Source: a virus. Taken from it: 11,725 bases of DNA. Below are positions 3,744 through 11,475 of the stretch, piece by piece (positions within the stretch are counted from its first letter, which is position 1; each line of letters opens with the position of its first letter). The notes under the pieces were generated by a model. The model saw only the letters and a program-made list of their open reading frames with translations. It did no database searches and was not told the origin of the DNA. Where the stretch lies: the UHGV virus genome UHGV-0243446; one strand, 5' to 3'. The translations under genes and the position numbers were made by a program.

Positions 3744-4250
3744 TTAAATTGCGTGAATAGCGTGACGAGGGAAGGGGAGAGTTACTGGTGCAAAGGGTAT
3801 ATCGTCGTCAAAATCCATCGGAGGTTCGTTGTGTTGTGCTGGTGATGATTGCTGCTGTGGCTTCTGTGATTGCCTGCTGGCTGCTTGTTGTTTGCTGTCG
3901 CCAATGCCGCCAAGCATTTGCATCACGCCATTAATTCCGACATGAACCTCGGTTGTGTAACGGTCTTGCCCTGACTGGTCTTTCCACTTTCTGGTTCTCA
4001 GCATTCCCTCGAAATAAATCTGATCACCTTTTTTCACATACCGCCCAACGACCTCAGCCAGTTTCCCGGATACAGCAACACGATGCCATTCAGTCAATTC
4101 CTTTTGCTCGCCAGTATTTTTATCTCGCCATTGTTCTGACGTGGCTATTGTCAGGTTAGCGAACGCTGTTCCTGATGGTGAGTATCGAACTTCCGGGTCT
4201 TGTCCTACCCGACCAAGGATAATCACCTTATTTACGCCTCTGCTTGCCAT
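3744..4250 (-). CDS. ssb: Single-stranded DNA-binding protein (SSB) with C-terminal extension
   Basis: N-terminus [13 protein letters not shown]...DPEVRY...TEWHRV...[11 protein letters not shown] closely resembles E. coli SSB, followed by a Gln/Ser-rich tail and [10 protein letters not shown]. The ORF then continues 15 codons ([15 protein letters not shown]) before the stop. Confidence 0.9.
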
Positions 4251-7004: not shown

Positions 7005-7100
7005 TGGCTAAAGAATACTGTAGGTATTTTATTGTGTAAATACCCAAGGTATTTATTTTTGGTGAAATAATGATAAGCAAATGAATACAAAGGATATTTA
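7005..7100 (-). promoter_or_regulatory. PL promoter with OL operators
   Basis: Minus-strand -35 TTTACA (7040-7035), 17-bp spacer, -10 TATTCT (7017-7012). 17-bp dyad sites GAATACTGTAGGTATTT (7013-7029), AAATACCCAAGGTATTT (7038-7054) and a weaker GAATACAAAGGATATTT (7083-7099). Same half-site family as the OR sites. Confidence 0.6.
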
Positions 7101-7185: not shown

Positions 7186-7575
7186 TTAGTCAGCGAAGGT
7201 TAAGACGAGAATTACCTTAATGATGTCTGCTACAACAGACACGGCCATAGATAAACCAAAGACAATCCAAGCCATAGAGATGTCTTCACTACCATCGTAT
7301 AGAGTTCCGTAATCACTGGTGTAAGGCGTAAATGTCGCGCCTTGATACAACAGGTATAAGCTTGAACCATAGAGGATAAATGCAGATATCCCTTGTATTG
7401 CTATGATCACCAGAATCATGAAACGAGCTGATCTATGCGCCCAAGCCTGGCTTATTTTTTCTGATAGAGATTTCGCAATAAAAGCATGCGCTAAGCCGTA
7501 AATTGTCGAGATTTCCAACATCCCCAAAAAGCTTGCTATAGCGGTTCCAACCATAATCGCCCCTTGCGTGATCAA
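7186..7575 (-). CDS. Small polytopic membrane protein (3 predicted TM helices) in the rex/immunity-region position
   Basis: Track ORF begins with TTG overlapping the cI stop. An ATG about 7554 with AAGGGG RBS is likely the real start (about 122 aa). Three hydrophobic segments of about 22-25 residues. Downstream of cI on the same strand, as rexAB is in lambda. Confidence 0.6.
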   Translation of the reverse strand: MITQGAIMVGTAIASFLGMLEISTIYGLAHAFIAKSLSEKISQAWAHRSARFMILVIIAIQGISAFILYGSSLYLLYQGATFTPYTSDYGTLYDGSEDISMAWIVFGLSMAVSVVADIIKVILVLTFAD

Positions 7576-8288
7576 ACCAGCCTTAGTTTTGTCTCAATTG
7601 CAACGCCTATAATCTTGCAGTTTCCATTGATTGGCACGAGAGGCCATGCAGGATTAAGTCCCTTGAGGTATTTATTTCCGCCGTCGATTATCAGCTTCTT
7701 GAATGTTGCTTCGTTAGAGTCAGAAAGTTTTGCTATGACCAAGCTGCCGTTGATCGCCTCCCTTCCGGTATCGAAAAGAACGAATGTTCCCTCTGGAATG
7801 CTTAACCCAACCGGTGCCGTCATTGAATCACCTTCCACTTTAAGCCAGAACGCATTACCTTGAATATGCGCGTCAGACTCAAGCCAAACATCTATGTCTT
7901 TAATGGTGTATGGTTCGCATGCTTCACACCACGAGCCAGCCTGGATACTGCTTAACACCGGATACCTCTTTCCTGCTCTGTATTCCCCTGCATACCTTAC
8001 GTTGGCATCGCTCTTAAGGCTTTCTGCCTGTTCTGCAACCTTGGCAGCAATTGACTGGCTAAAATCAGCAATTGAGACTTGCAACAGTCGTGCAAAACCA
8101 GATGCAACCTCAACGTTTAGCGCGTTTCTGCCATTAAGATAATGCCCTACCGCTCCTTGGGTGATACCCAGTTCATCAGCGATTGAGTATTGGGTTATTC
8201 CCAATTCTTTCTTTTTTGACTCATACAAAGCCTTAAGCCGCTTAGCGTCTTCGAGCTGTTCTGTCGTCAGTGATTTTTTATTTTCCAT
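7572..8288 (-). CDS. cI: cI-type phage repressor (HTH N-domain plus S24 LexA-like autoprotease C-domain)
   Basis: N-terminus MENKKSLTTEQLEDAKRLKALYESKKKELGITQYSIADELG resembles lambda cI. Ala-Gly cleavage site in IQAGSW. Catalytic Ser in GDSM and Lys in FKKL. Start codon abuts the operator region. Confidence 0.92.
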   Translation of the reverse strand: MENKKSLTTEQLEDAKRLKALYESKKKELGITQYSIADELGITQGAVGHYLNGRNALNVEVASGFARLLQVSIADFSQSIAAKVAEQAESLKSDANVRYAGEYRAGKRYPVLSSIQAGSWCEACEPYTIKDIDVWLESDAHIQGNAFWLKVEGDSMTAPVGLSIPEGTFVLFDTGREAINGSLVIAKLSDSNEATFKKLIIDGGNKYLKGLNPAWPLVPINGNCKIIGVAIETKLRLV

Positions 8289-8394
8289 AGCTTAATTCTA
8301 ATAGCTAAGGTACTTAAACTAAAAATACCCTGAGTATTGATTGCTTTGAATACCTGTAGTATTCTTTGTTCATGGTTAATAACGGAGAGTGCAT
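8289..8394. promoter_or_regulatory. OR operator region with divergent PRM and PR promoters
   Basis: Dyad sites AATACCCTGAGTATT (8324-8338) and GAATACCTGTAGTATTC (8348-8364); possible weak third site about 8299-8316. PR: -35 TTGATT (8337-8342), 17-bp spacer, -10 TATTCT (8360-8365). PRM on the minus strand: -10 TAGAAT (8300-8295), weak -35 TTTAGT (8323-8318), start at or near the cI AUG (leaderless). Confidence 0.65.
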
Positions 8395-9010: not shown

Positions 9011-9172
9011 ATGACAAAACGTCGTAAGAAATACCAGGAAAAAGAAGAGATTCGACACCCTGATTCACCTGAGGGATTAGTGGTAGCCGCAGCAAATAAC
9101 AGGGCGTTCGCAGAGCGCCTTGTTGGTGTTTACAGACTAGCCAAAGCAGGAGTGAAGCATGGGCGTCGTTAA
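9011..9172 (+). CDS. Hypothetical small basic protein (53 aa) between cII and the replication initiator
   Basis: ATG about 9011 with AGGAG RBS about 6 nt upstream; its stop overlaps the start of the downstream O-like ORF. The track's longer version begins with TTG at 8966 inside cII. Confidence 0.35.
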   Translation: MTKRRKKYQEKEEIRHPDSPEGLVVAAANNRAFAERLVGVYRLAKAGVKHGRR

Positions 9173-10049
9173 GTTAGCTGATTACAGGCATAACCCTGTA
9201 CAACATCAGGAGGCATCCAGTATGGGGTATGTCTCTATACACCGCCAGTTTATGGACAGCAGGCTCTATAAGGACTCTCAGGCAGTACATCTTTGGCTTC
9301 ACTTAATCCTCAAGGCTAATCACGAATCTACTGTCGTCAATACGGATATCGGTCCGATAACTGTTGATCGCGGTCAGATGATAACTGGACGCCCGTCGCT
9401 GGTCAGAGAAACATTCATCCCCGACAACAAAGTTCGGAGCTTATTACGGACTTTTGAGTCGAAAGGGATGCTTAATATTTGCTCGATGGGGAAGAAATTT
9501 AGCCTGTTTACAATCGTTAAATATGACGATTTTCAGGCAAAAAATTGTCCAACGGTTGTCCAACGGTTGTCCAACGCAAACACCAGTAATGGCGCGGCTC
9601 TCAGCGGAGATTGTCCAACGGTTGTCCAACGGTTGTCCATAAACAATAATATAAATAATATCTCTAATACTGACGTATTAGAGAGTGCCACAGCAGACAA
9701 AAAGTCTGACAAGAAAAAACCTTCCGTCAGCTGTCAGGATGTTGTCGATGCTTACCACGAAATCCTTCCTGAAGCGCCAAGAATCCGCGCACTGAATGAC
9801 AAGCGTAAAAACCAGATCCGAACGTTCTGGCGCAAAGCCGGAGTGATAACCCGCCAGCTTGACGGGCATGGGTTCACGATGCAGGACTGGAGAAATTATT
9901 TGAGCTACGTAGGCGAAAATTGCCGATGGATGTTCGAAGAACGCCCAAACCATCAACGCGGAACCGTCTGGCACAAAAAGGGATTTGATTTCCTGCTTAA
10001 CGACAATACCTACCTGAAAGTTCGTGAGGGTGAACACGATGACCGATAA
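9159..10049 (+). CDS. Replication initiator (lambda O-like / replisome organiser) containing the origin iterons
   Basis: Sits in the O position and is translationally coupled to the helicase. Iterons and an AT-rich tract lie inside the coding sequence, as ori-lambda lies inside O. An alternative start at ATG 9222 has a strong AGGAGG RBS. Confidence 0.7.
   Translation: MGVVKLADYRHNPVQHQEASSMGYVSIHRQFMDSRLYKDSQAVHLWLHLILKANHESTVVNTDIGPITVDRGQMITGRPSLVRETFIPDNKVRSLLRTFESKGMLNICSMGKKFSLFTIVKYDDFQAKNCPTVVQRLSNANTSNGAALSGDCPTVVQRLSINNNINNISNTDVLESATADKKSDKKKPSVSCQDVVDAYHEILPEAPRIRALNDKRKNQIRTFWRKAGVITRQLDGHGFTMQDWRNYLSYVGENCRWMFEERPNHQRGTVWHKKGFDFLLNDNTYLKVREGEHDDR
9545..9643. repeat. Phage replication origin iterons: six copies of an 11-bp repeat TTGTCCAACGG in two triplets
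   Basis: Copies at 9545-9577 and 9611-9643 with 11-bp register. Followed by an AT-rich tract (9641-9665) and a 9-bp inverted repeat CTCTAATAC-TGAC-GTATTAGAG (about 9660-9685). Confidence 0.75.
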
Positions 10050-11475
10050 TTTTTATGCGCCGCCCCATAGCATCGAGGCAGAGCAGGCGGTTATTGGTGG
10101 ATTGCTTCTGGATGATGACAGCAGTGAGCGCGTCCGGAAAGTTCTGGCGATGCTGAAGCCTGATTCATTTTACAGCCGACCACACAAAATCCTTTTCGAA
10201 GAAATAACCAGAATGCACCGGGAGCAAAAGCCAGTAGATGGGCTGACGCTTTTCGATGAACTGGAGCGCAAATCGTTAACGGCGTCTGTTGGCGGTTTTG
10301 CTTATATCGCTGAGATCGCAAAGAACACGCCAAGCGCAGCAAACATCGTTGCCTATGCAATGCAGGTTCGTGAAACCGCAATGGAACGCTACGCCATCAA
10401 CCGCATGACTGAAGCGACGGAATTGCTCTATTCCCGCAACGGAATGACTGCAACGCAGAAGTACGAAGCTATTCAGGCGATTTTCACGCAACTGATAGAT
10501 CATGCAAAAACCGGATCGCGTCGCGGCCTTCGCTCATTTGGTGAGGTCATGGAAGACTGGGTTAGTGACCTTGAGAAGCGATTTGACCCATCAGGCGAAC
10601 AACGGGGAATGAGCACAGGGATCCCATCGCTGGACAGGATGCTGTCACCGAAAGGTCTGGTGAAAGGCTCTCTGTTTGTCATTGGCGCCCGCCCTAAGAT
10701 GGGGAAAACGACGCTATACAGCCAGATGGCAATCAATTGCGCAGTGCATGAGAAAAAGCCCGCTTTGATGTTCAGCCTTGAAATGCCAGGTGATCAGATA
10801 CTGGAAAAACTGGTAGGGCAGAAGTCTGGTGTTAACCCGAATATTTTTTACCTTCCGGCGACAAATGACGCTGATGACGGCTATCAGGGTGATTACGATG
10901 GTGACTTCAACAGGGCGATCGAAACAGCCAATCGCTTGAGTGAAATCGACCTGCTTTACATCGACGACACGCCGGGATTATCTCTGGCTCAAATCGTCAG
11001 CGAAAGCCGTCGAATCAAGCGAGAAAAAGGATGTGTTGGCATGATTCTGGTCGATTACCTGACACTAATGACCGCTGAGAAGGCCGATCGCAACGACCTT
11101 GCTTACGGCATGATCACCAAAGGACTGAAGAACCTTGCCAAAGAGCTTGATTGCGTTGTTGTGCTTCTGACACAGCTTAACCGCGCACTGGAAAGCCGAA
11201 CCAATAAACGCCCATTACCAAGTGACTCACGAGATACAGGGCAGATTGAACAGGATTGCGATTATTGGGTCGGGATCCATCGTGAAGGCGCTTTTGATGA
11301 CAGTGTTCCACCTGGTGAAACTGAACTAATCCTTCGTCTCAATCGTCATGGCAATACCGGCACGGTGTATTGCATTCAGGCAAATGGCGCTATTTATGAC
11401 ACAGACCAACAGTCTGCTGAAATGCGCCGCCGTGAACGCGAGGAACCGCAGTCCAAGAAGAAAGGAGGATTCTGA
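10039..11475 (+). CDS. DnaB-family replicative DNA helicase
   Basis: N-terminal PHSIEAEQAVIGGLL motif typical of DnaB. Walker A GARPKMGKTT; Walker B-like ILVDYLTLM. ATG 10039 with GAGGGTGA RBS overlaps the O-like stop. The track start at 10024 is a GTG. Confidence 0.9.
   Translation: MTDNFYAPPHSIEAEQAVIGGLLLDDDSSERVRKVLAMLKPDSFYSRPHKILFEEITRMHREQKPVDGLTLFDELERKSLTASVGGFAYIAEIAKNTPSAANIVAYAMQVRETAMERYAINRMTEATELLYSRNGMTATQKYEAIQAIFTQLIDHAKTGSRRGLRSFGEVMEDWVSDLEKRFDPSGEQRGMSTGIPSLDRMLSPKGLVKGSLFVIGARPKMGKTTLYSQMAINCAVHEKKPALMFSLEMPGDQILEKLVGQKSGVNPNIFYLPATNDADDGYQGDYDGDFNRAIETANRLSEIDLLYIDDTPGLSLAQIVSESRRIKREKGCVGMILVDYLTLMTAEKADRNDLAYGMITKGLKNLAKELDCVVVLLTQLNRALESRTNKRPLPSDSRDTGQIEQDCDYWVGIHREGAFDDSVPPGETELILRLNRHGNTGTVYCIQANGAIYDTDQQSAEMRRREREEPQSKKKGGF

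Follow-up and report, generated by a model that had tools for sequence, protein, structure and literature searches.

The initiator-like gene of the virus genome UHGV-0243446 contains a series of short direct repeats followed by A/T-rich DNA and an inverted repeat, which raises the question whether this stretch is an origin of replication and, if it is, what part each of these elements plays. A sequence-only reading had placed an origin there. Positions given below are those of the window, that is, the whole stretch of 11,725 nucleotides that was analysed, and the features are as follows.

9159 to 10049, plus strand: initiator gene of the Sf6 gp43 / phage L gp18 / HK022 O type (296 aa), containing the putative origin (identity to Sf6 gene 43; PHROG 345)
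9225 to 9533, plus strand: N-terminal domain, residues 23-125, predicted winged-helix DNA-binding domain and presumed reader of the iterons (AlphaFold2, pLDDT 75-88)
9534 to 9716, plus strand: interdomain linker, residues 126-186, predicted to be disordered, with the whole putative origin inside it (pLDDT <50)
9545 to 9577, plus strand: iteron triplet 1, TTGTCCAACGG, TTGTCCAACGG and TTGTCCAACGC (repeat search)
9578 to 9610, plus strand: inter-triplet spacer of 33 bp, equal to three 11-bp slots without an iteron (same length in 50 of 50 related loci)
9611 to 9643, plus strand: iteron triplet 2, TTGTCCAACGG, TTGTCCAACGG and TTGTCCATAAA, the last degenerate at its 3' end (repeat search)
9640 to 9669, no strand: AT-rich tract, presumed DNA unwinding element (duplex-stability minimum, z about 4)
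9661 to 9684, no strand: perfect palindrome TCTCTAATAC-TGAC-GTATTAGAGA, at the place of the 28-bp palindrome of lambda ori (inverted-repeat search, covariation)
9717 to 10037, plus strand: C-terminal domain, residues 187-293, helical, presumed helicase-recruiting module (pLDDT 72-88)
10039 to 11475, plus strand: DnaB-like replicative helicase of the P22 gp12 / HK022 P type, whose start overlaps the end of the initiator gene (Pfam DnaB 5e-31, DnaB_C 3e-60; coordinates taken after Sf6 gene 44)

Predicted domain organization of the initiator

The initiator protein is 99.7% identical to Sf6 gp43, 82.5% identical to gp18 of L/ST64T and 66% identical to HK022 O. It matches PHROG 345, 'replication initiation O-like', over residues 1-296 (E = 5.8e-85), and the PHROG search also gave matches to DnaD-like loaders. 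Sequence searches of Pfam, NCBIfam and PDB returned no usable match for it, only DUF7376 below its cut-off. The AlphaFold2 model has two domains joined by a linker. The Foldseek matches of the N-domain in PDB that were inspected, all of the best-scoring ones included, are winged-helix proteins, namely, the DNA-binding domain of CodY, ArsR/CadC, MarR, and the N-domain of plasmid RepA (4pql/4pt7), and these matches are weak (E 0.008-0.09).

A homology to lambda O was at one point indicated by hhalign with 97% probability but was rejected, because the signal came from the lambda-like C-domain of an Erwinia chimera and fell to 0.1% when the chimera was removed. The Pfam family of lambda O, PF04492 (Phage_rep_O), gave no match at E <= 1 in eight members of the initiator family. 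Since the initiator has no detectable sequence homology to lambda O, the analogy to lambda that is drawn below is one of architecture and not a family assignment. The N- and C-domains are exchanged independently of each other (Mantel r = -0.06), and where the partner is lambda P a lambda-O-like domain takes the place of the C-domain. Natural domain swaps of this kind are found in Erwinia phage 59 and its relatives, in which the N-domain, the iterons and the palindrome are joined to a lambda-O-like C-domain that is followed by lambda P.

Six 11-bp iterons in one register

Exact copies of TTGTCCAACGG start at 9545, 9556, 9611 and 9622, and two variant copies complete the set, TTGTCCAACGC at 9567 and the degenerate TTGTCCATAAA at 9633. 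The starts are spaced 11, 11, 44, 11 and 11 bp, and therefore the two triplets lie 66 bp apart and share one 11-bp register. This is what the sequence-only reading had described, and the repeats span 9545-9643. No further copies with 0-1 mismatch were found elsewhere in the 11.7-kb window. The distance of 66 bp corresponds to six helical turns only if a turn has 11.0 bp; with 10.5 bp in a turn, the triplets would be about 100 degrees out of phase. No dyad symmetry is conserved in the iterons across the iteron types of the family described below: the CAACGGTTG dyad that occurs at the iteron junctions of the type in the window is missing from the other types and thus is not a conserved feature. 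Sigma-70-like matches inside the iterons were considered as promoters and rejected, as they are weak (9 of 12 positions) and arise from the repeat sequence itself.

The earlier reading had also noted that the iterons are translated in frame into a repetitive peptide, and ORF 9159-10049 does read NCPTVVQRLSN ... CPTVVQRLSI. It could be argued from this that the repeats serve the protein as a duplicated linker peptide (CPTVVQRLSN twice) and have no role as DNA, the AT tract and the palindrome being by-products of an Asn/Ile-rich linker. The 66-bp offset, which is 22 codons and so duplicates the peptide, agrees with this explanation as does the in-frame translation, and in a linker that is predicted to be disordered low-complexity sequence would not be surprising. 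However, the three iterons of each triplet lie in three different codon phases because 11 bp is not a multiple of 3, and when the unit is read in three frames selection on the peptide cannot keep the DNA copies alike. Moreover, the linker is highly variable in amino acid sequence, its peptides diverging widely among relatives, whereas the 11-bp periodicity, the register and the symmetry of the palindrome are invariant, and nonsynonymous changes are tolerated where the palindrome is preserved (ISNTDVLES, NSLTNVRES, ISSTDVEES, NSISKDIEC, LLPNGSKYV). We regard an exclusively peptide-level role for the repeats as extremely improbable. Judged by copies that are alike despite three codon phases, selection on the iterons acts on the DNA and not on the peptide. 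Between the window and phage L, the change of T to A at iteron position 1 alters residues (V to D, L to M) and the core of the iteron is kept.

Winged-helix proteins of the PhoB/OmpR type bind head to tail on 11-bp direct repeats, such as pho boxes, along one face of the DNA. The PhoB/OmpR proteins differ from the phage initiator in that they are transcription factors acting on two repeats; there is no evidence of homology between them and the initiator, and the likeness would be one of binding geometry only.

A fixed layout with several iteron types

Architecture and covariation were examined in 50 related loci, the window and 49 others, which were collected by tblastn on phage records and by a scan of one genome per species. 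A first scan of IMG/VR had returned only loci with at least 99% identity, which are useless for covariation and were used for the immunity comparison described below. The layout is fixed in the 50 loci, from Escherichia to Xenorhabdus, Yersinia, Pantoea and Morganella: triplet 1 begins 26 nt past the codons for KYD[DE][YF]Q and triplet 2 at +92, and the AT tract and palindrome come next. The 66-bp unit is present in one, two or three copies among the related loci, so that natural variants with 3, 6 and 9 iterons exist. There are about seven iteron types, namely, TGTCCAACGG, TGCCAACAG (Klebsiella type), TTACCAGCA (HK022 type), TGTCCAGCC, TTACCAACAG, AATCCAAAGG and AGCCAACGA.

The distance between iterons is associated with the distance between N-domains (Mantel r = 0.60, p <= 0.0005) and not with that between C-domains (r = 0.02). 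In the 109 pairs of loci with similar N-domains and different C-domains the iterons differ at only 8% of positions, whereas in the 36 pairs with different N-domains and similar C-domains they differ at 42%. Physical linkage is a confounder of this association, as the repeats lie directly next to the coding sequence of the N-domain.

The AT-rich tract

The sequence-only reading had put about 40 bp of AT-rich sequence after the iterons. The tract is there but is somewhat shorter: A+T content is 90% in 9639-9669 and 80% in 9640-9684, which includes the palindrome. In a duplex stability scan the tract was the least stable 20-, 30- and 40-bp duplex of the whole window (z about 3.9-4.3). The N-domain and C-domain modules usually recombine at the AT tract, and HK022, HK620 and the Stx phages match the window only rightwards from about 9639. 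Relatives of the Erwinia type have a tract of just 9 nt.

Comparison with known and putative replication origins

The region is about 99% identical to Sf6, HK75, mEpX2, IME10 and others. With Sf6 gene 43 the identity of about 99% extends over the whole gene with no essential difference, and the putative rep_origin at 28385-28480 in the Sf6 record (AF547987) maps onto 9544-9639 of the window. Homologous rep_origin features are found in the records of HK620 and phage L. Gene 18 of phage L / ST64T (MW013503), about 84% identical to the window in DNA, shares with it the TGTCCAACGG iterons, the AT tract and the palindrome, and differs in having A for T at iteron position 1 and TAAC for TGAC in the centre of the palindrome. 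What HK022 and HK620 have in common with the window, at about 95%, is the AT tract, palindrome and C-terminal domain; the N-domain is different in both, and their iterons are TTACCAGCArA. In L gene 18 a set of six imprecise 11-bp repeats, TGTCCAACGGA, has been called 'likely the origin', and genetic work cited there showed that the replication regions of L and P22 exchange only as whole units (PMC8022706). The public annotations of Sf6, L and HK620/HK022 are all labelled putative, and the origin in them comprises the repeats but neither the AT tract nor the palindrome. The searchable literature contained genome-annotation statements only, and no direct experiment (binding, unwinding or replication assay) on this type of origin was found in it.

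The region resembles lambda ori in several respects. Both are embedded in the initiator gene where the N- and C-domains meet, and the order of the elements is the same: iterons, about 40 bp of A/T-rich DNA, and a palindrome with a 4-nt centre, which in lambda is GTCAGAGAATTC-TGGC-GAATCCTCTGAC. A further likeness would be the division of labour within a two-domain initiator, with recognition of the origin by the N-domain and recruitment of the helicase system by the C-domain, and the chimeras with a lambda-O-like C-domain and lambda P support it. On the other hand, lambda ori has four 18-19-bp iterons with an internal dyad whereas the window has six 11-bp direct repeats with no conserved dyad, and the partner in lambda is lambda P, the loader of host DnaB, whereas in the window it is a DnaB-like helicase of the phage itself. 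The likeness to genes 18 and 12 of P22 is in gene order, that is, an orf48-like small gene, the initiator and a DnaB-type helicase. The P22 origin lies inside the initiator gene as in L, but P22 gp18 is only 25% identical to L gp18, the four repeats in the P22 gene are about 20 bp long and differ in sequence, and the replication specificities of P22 and L are not interchangeable gene by gene (PMC8022706). The region is also unlike the plasmid iteron origins of the RepA / pi class, which have iterons of about 19-22 bp and adjacent DnaA boxes: the unit here is 11 bp and there are no DnaA boxes near it, the sole TTWTNCACA match in the window being at 4030.

We conclude that the region is very probably the theta-replication origin of the Sf6 / L / HK022-type lambdoid replication module, built like lambda ori and located inside the initiator gene at the boundary of the two domains. 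The evidence in favour of this conclusion, which upholds the earlier reading, is indirect: the lambda ori order of the elements, the position at a domain boundary together with the DnaB-like helicase, the co-variation of iterons and N-domain, the rep_origin annotations in Sf6, HK620 and L, and the published statement on L. A lambda-type origin is not in itself a discovery, since the records of Sf6, HK620 and L already label these repeats as putative origins.

A palindrome maintained by paired changes

The arms of the palindrome, TCTCTAATAC (9661-9670) and GTATTAGAGA (9675-9684), are 10 bp long and 100% complementary around the loop TGAC. Thus, the inverted repeat of the earlier reading, with its TGAC centre, is present and perfect, but its arms are 10 bp rather than 9. 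The energy of the DNA hairpin is -7.5 kcal/mol (z = -6.4). Nine arm pairs are 100% Watson-Crick in all 26 distinct sequences, with 69-77 double changes and zero one-sided changes, and the covariation is 0.713 as against 0.164 in shuffles. There are 14 different arm sequences, each of them perfectly Watson-Crick and reached by paired changes, and G-T intermediates never occur. Arms in relatives include TCTAC/GTAGA, CTTAC/GTAAG, ATATC/GATAT and CTACC/GGTAG, with the symmetry retained, and those of Klebsiella are TCTCTTCTAC/GTAGAAGAGA. The palindrome is retained with either partner, a DnaB-like helicase or a lambda-P-type loader. That it is kept intact by matched mutations in many relatives is the part that has not been described before, and this compensatory evolution is strong evidence that the palindrome is functional.

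Covariation by itself is also compatible with an RNA stem, and the palindrome and AT tract could act as RNA, either as a leftward (minus-strand) intrinsic terminator or as an mRNA hairpin, and not as a DNA element of the origin. A consensus scan calls a minus-strand terminator-like site here (stem 9684-9661, tail TATTATTTAT), automatic 'terminator' features stand at the corresponding place in the phage L record, and folded as RNA the hairpin comes to about -13 kcal/mol (z = -3.4 to -4.4). However, the single terminator-like site compares with 1.4 expected in shuffles, there are just 3 G-C pairs in the stem, and A and U are mixed in the tail, which has no U run. The AT tract is reduced to the 9 nt mentioned above in the Erwinia-type relatives, no leftward promoter or transcript is known downstream, and an Rfam search of the window matched no family. 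Furthermore, nine core pairs with no G-U and no one-sided change in 26 distinct sequences fit the symmetry of duplex or two-stranded DNA and would be unusual for an RNA stem. A role as RNA is, in our view, very unlikely.

Recognition of the palindrome by the C-domain was suggested by an association between palindrome type and C-domain type (r = 0.33). This candidate was rejected: the palindrome and the C-domain coding sequence adjoin, near-identical C-domains occur with different arms (Cronobacter and Klebsiella phi8.1), and unrelated C-domains occur with nearly the same arms (the window and Erwinia 59). As the arm sequence does not strictly follow one C-domain type, recognition of structure is favoured over recognition of sequence.

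The arms also resemble the operator half-sites of the immunity region, and the sequence-only reading had left it open whether this was coincidence or repressor contact at the origin. The resemblance is real. AATAC-N5-GTATT occurs at 7014, 7039, 8324 and 8349, flanking the cI/cro genes, and the palindrome contains AATAC-N4-GTATT at 9666-9679; the window thus has 5 matches to AATAC-N{4,5}-GTATT, where 0.01 are expected, the four outside the palindrome being the OL and OR operators. If the palindrome were an additional cI/Cro site, immunity would act directly at the origin. But the spacing is N4 as against N5 in all four perfect operators, which shifts the phasing of the half-sites by one base pair, and palindrome and immunity type occur independently. 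All 80 IMG/VR loci with an initiator at least 99% identical have the identical palindrome, and only 26 of them have this immunity type, the other 54 having other types; conversely, among 76 loci of this immunity type, 44 combine it with other replication modules that lack the site. The palindrome is found also in Sf6, which has 434-type operators, and in HK022, HK620 and L, and in distant relatives the arms lose AATAC/GTATT through compensatory substitutions. A 5-bp match in one of several registers and among dozens of immunity types is, by a rough estimate, not improbable. Repressor contact at the palindrome is therefore highly improbable, and coincidence is the better reading because the spacing differs and there is no co-inheritance with the immunity region.

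A proposed mechanism and its implications

Returning to the lambda-type origin, we infer the following sequence of events. The winged-helix N-domain of the initiator would bind the six 11-bp repeats in head-to-tail order along a single helical face, the two sets of three sharing one 11-bp lattice. The nucleoprotein complex would strain the adjoining AT-rich tract, the weakest duplex of the region, and the tract would open. The C-terminal domain would then recruit the phage's own DnaB-like helicase, the product of the next gene. At the far edge of the tract, the 10-bp palindrome would belong to the structure of the origin and be under selection as palindromic DNA, whether as a hairpin, a cruciform or a symmetric site, and transcription from pR through the initiator gene probably assists firing, as in lambda.

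It is possible, though we would stop short of calling it probable, that the palindrome is an obligatory structure-specific element of origin firing throughout the family. It would then be a DNA hairpin or cruciform whose centre, T-R-A-C, hardly varies, and perhaps the counterpart of the 28-bp palindrome in lambda ori. It could signal loading or priming to the phage DnaB-like helicase, or it could limit unwinding. The support for this is entirely comparative, namely, the 14 perfectly paired arm variants, the retention with either partner and the loose link between arm sequence and C-domain type.

The replication module is very common, with 385 relatives confirmed in one IMG/VR scan and 1605 protein clusters at E <= 1e-5, and it is present also in Stx-converting phages; in the searchable literature its origin appears only in annotation statements. 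The iterons form a series of about seven types on one rigid scaffold, each with its own N-domain, and this series is suited to studying how the specificity of a winged-helix initiator changes. The covariation of the palindrome makes the old question of what the palindrome does at lambda-type origins testable. If the palindrome is indeed an obligatory structural element, its perfect symmetry would be a candidate trigger of the palindrome-sensing host defences SbcCD and Lamassu/DdmABC.

Genomic setting of the initiator gene

The window comes from a mosaic lambdoid phage or prophage, of which it is the early region. It encodes a lambda-type Cro and CII, and after CII the gene order is the orf48/hkaW-like gene, the initiator and the DnaB-like helicase.

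7572-8288, minus strand: cI repressor, S24/HTH
9011-9172: small orf48/hkaW-like gene, PHROG 1331

The initiator matches PHROG 345, 'replication initiation O-like' (E = 6e-85). In its AlphaFold2 model the N-domain (residues 23-125) and the C-domain (187-293) are confident, and residues 126-186, that is nt 9534-9716, have pLDDT <50. The whole putative origin falls in this predicted disordered linker, where coding constraints would be weakest. The best structural matches of the N-domain were winged-helix DNA-binding domains, plasmid RepA N-domains among them, with weak E values of 0.008-0.09. In a related protein, P0039 (292 aa, single Logan contig), part of the iteron zone is read in another frame (…IVQRLSNGCPTQTPVMARLSAEIVQRLS…), which is either a linker tolerating a frame change or an assembly error. 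Elsewhere in the window, a 129-codon ORF (7186-7575, minus strand) lies directly downstream of cI with a 4-nt overlap with its end and could be a lysogen-expressed accessory gene. A 33-bp sequence at the oop promoter and 5' end is reported to be conserved in 23 lambdoid phages (PMC3349717), and window 8986-9018 matches it exactly (ACTGGATCaATCcACAGGAGTaATTATGaCAAA), overlapping the start of the orf48/hkaW-like gene.

The repeat zone and its selection as DNA

The elements of the putative origin all lie inside the ORF 9159-10049:

9545, 9556, 9611 and 9622: exact iterons, TTGTCCAACGG
9567: iteron, TTGTCCAACGC
9633: iteron, TTGTCCATAAA, 3'-degenerate
9639-9669: AT-rich stretch, 90% A+T (45 bp at 80% A+T with the palindrome counted in)
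9661-9684: inverted repeat, TCTCTAATAC-TGAC-GTATTAGAGA, 10-bp arms, fully complementary

The iterons are spaced by 11, 11, 44, 11 and 11 bp, and hence the two triplets, the 66-bp offset and the 11-bp register of the sequence-only reading are all borne out; the 11,725-bp window holds no further copy with <=1 mismatch. Smaller details of that reading needed correction. An AT-rich tract is present but its 90% A+T part is shorter than the roughly 40 bp claimed, and the inverted repeat has the TGAC centre but its arms are 10 bp and not 9. The repeats are translated in-frame as NCPTVVQRLSN and CPTVVQRLSI. By nearest-neighbour calculation the AT-rich stretch is the least stable 20-, 30- and 40-bp duplex of the 11,725 bp (z ~4).

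The 11-bp period is not divisible by 3, so each triplet's three copies fall in three different codon phases, and therefore their similarity cannot come from the protein. This three-frame reading excludes a purely protein-level repeat. Phage L has A where the window has T at iteron position 1; this substitution alters amino acids (V to D, L to M) but spares the TGTCCAACGG core. The repeat zone is selected as DNA, not as peptide.

The copy number of the 66-bp unit (three iterons and spacer) differs among near-identical genes (window 9545-9643; related loci L223 1886-2047 and L226 1887-1919). Initiator variants of 274, 296 and 318 aa, in steps of exactly 22 residues, carry 1, 2 and 3 copies, that is 3, 6 and 9 iterons, of which the window has the 6-iteron form. 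The 3-iteron form examined, in Shigella flexneri CP000266, has an IS4 element upstream and is apparently a decayed prophage remnant; the 9-iteron form is found in E. coli in intact-looking cI-cro-cII-O-helicase modules.

Relatives and prior annotation

The DNA of the initiator region is 99.0-99.6% identical to that of Sf6, HK75, mEpX2, HK106, mEp234, IME10, Huey and others. The Sf6 record, AF547987, has a rep_origin, 'putative; repeat region reminiscent of the phage lambda origin', which maps to window 9544-9639, and the HK620 and phage L records have rep_origin features at the homologous place. An origin inside the O-like gene agrees with these annotations, and with this near-identity the origin reading, still putative, is the standard one for this replication module. 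PMC8022706 places the likely origin of phage L at six imprecise 11-bp repeats in gene 18 and recounts earlier genetics in which the replication regions of L and P22 were exchangeable only as a whole. In the literature searched, we found no paper with a direct test of this origin type.

Among relatives taken from phage records and one genome per species, 50 loci share a rigid layout: KYD[DE][YF]Q codons, 26 nt further on 3 x 11-bp repeats, a 33-bp spacer, 3 repeats, the AT tract and a 9-11-bp perfect palindrome centred on TAAC, TGAC or TAAA. All iteron types have a CCA core in common.

Iteron cores among relatives
TGTCCAACGG: window, Sf6, L, Cronobacter, Xenorhabdus
TGCCAACAG: Klebsiella phi8.1, Raoultella, Yersinia, Erwinia
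TTACCAGCA: HK022, HK620
TGTCCAGCC: Klebsiella phage Chronis, Enterobacter
TTACCAACAG: Pantoea
AATCCAAAGG: Ewingella, Biostraticola
AGCCAACGA: an Enterobacterales MAG

Iteron distance correlates with N-domain distance (Mantel r = 0.60, p <= 0.0005) but not with C-domain distance (r = 0.02). Since N- and C-domain distances are themselves uncorrelated (r = -0.06), the two halves of the initiator are shuffled freely. HK022, HK620 and many Stx phages, VT2-Sakai among them, are ~95% identical to the window only from ~9639 rightwards; they share the AT tract, palindrome and C-domain but differ in the N-domain and iterons (TTACCAGCArA), and the N/C mosaic junction lies in the AT tract at ~9639. The association of iterons with the N-domain supports specific recognition but falls short of proof because linkage contributes to it. 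Two distant N-domain relatives, L138 (880-1010) and L141 (Prevotella sp. oral taxon 376), have about nine tandem 12-bp repeats, ACAAATGAGCAA, after KYDDYQ codons. The repeats encode (TNEQ)n; a palindrome was not found at these two loci, and the repeats may be another iteron layout at the same position.

The architecture and logic of initiator and origin are those of lambda, although by sequence the initiator falls outside the lambda O family: it has no match to PF04492, and hhalign of its profile against lambda O gave a probability of 0.1% after a natural chimera was removed. The lambda ori palindrome, with 12-bp arms and a 4-nt centre, is at the same relative position. In that chimera, from Erwinia phage vB_EhrS_59 (L092, 838-1788), the N-domain, 2 x 3 iterons and palindrome are joined to a lambda-O-like C-domain, and the next gene, read in this locus only, is a lambda-P-type loader and not a DnaB-like helicase. 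The chimera is in itself good evidence for the N-domain as the functional counterpart of the lambda O origin-binding domain. Similar ones with a lambda-O-like C-domain occur at the related loci L119, L131-L133 and L140.

Evolution of the palindrome

The nine inner pairs of the palindrome are Watson-Crick in all 26 distinct sequences, despite 14 different arm sequences. Changes are both-sided in 10 of 11 pairs, with 77 double-change cells and 0 one-sided, and thus G-T and G-U intermediates are absent. Covariation scores 0.713, compared with 0.164 in shuffles (0/500 reach 0.713), and slid partners score <=0.175. The peptide over the palindrome, in contrast, varies freely (ISNTDVLES, NSLTNVRES, ISSTDVEES, NSISKDIEC, LLPNGSKYV and others). 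The palindrome is therefore directly selected as a nucleic-acid element. It persists where the partner is a DnaB-like helicase and also where, as in Erwinia phage 59 and relatives, the partner is a lambda-P-type loader. A terminator-like call on the minus strand spans the palindrome and the T-rich complement of the AT tract, as if the two formed a minus-strand terminator. However, this one site is no more than is found in shuffles, its stem has three G-C pairs, its tail is mixed A/T, and covariation without wobble suits DNA better than terminator RNA. The wobble-free pattern points to DNA over RNA as the selected form.

The sequence-only reading noted that the palindrome arms resemble operator half-sites and offered coincidence or repressor contact as explanations. 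The resemblance is real, as the palindrome is AATAC-N4-GTATT and the perfect cI/cro operators, each pair with degenerate third sites nearby, are AATAC-N5-GTATT:

7014 and 7039: operators in 7014-7053, left of cI
8324 and 8349: operators in 8324-8363, between cI and cro

Contact by cI or Cro is not supported, whether approached from the palindrome or from the immunity side. The palindrome spacing is one base short. Among the 80 IMG/VR loci whose initiator is >=99% identical, every one has the identical palindrome, but only 26 have the window's operators and cro. Conversely, 76 loci combine an identical Cro with these operators. This origin is present in 32 of them; the replication modules of the remaining 44 differ, and no AATAC-N4/5-GTATT site lies downstream there. 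The same arms also occur in Sf6, which has 434-type operators, and in HK022, HK620 and L. Given the spacing and the independent occurrence of palindrome and immunity type, coincidence in this particular mosaic is the preferred explanation, though weak repressor binding may occur. The window's immunity type is found naturally with at least three different replication modules.

The putative origin was correctly recognized, but it was already annotated and the module is very common among lambdoid phages. The covariation of the palindrome goes beyond the public annotation, and its compensatory evolution, together with the iteron specificity series, is a useful yet incremental addition.
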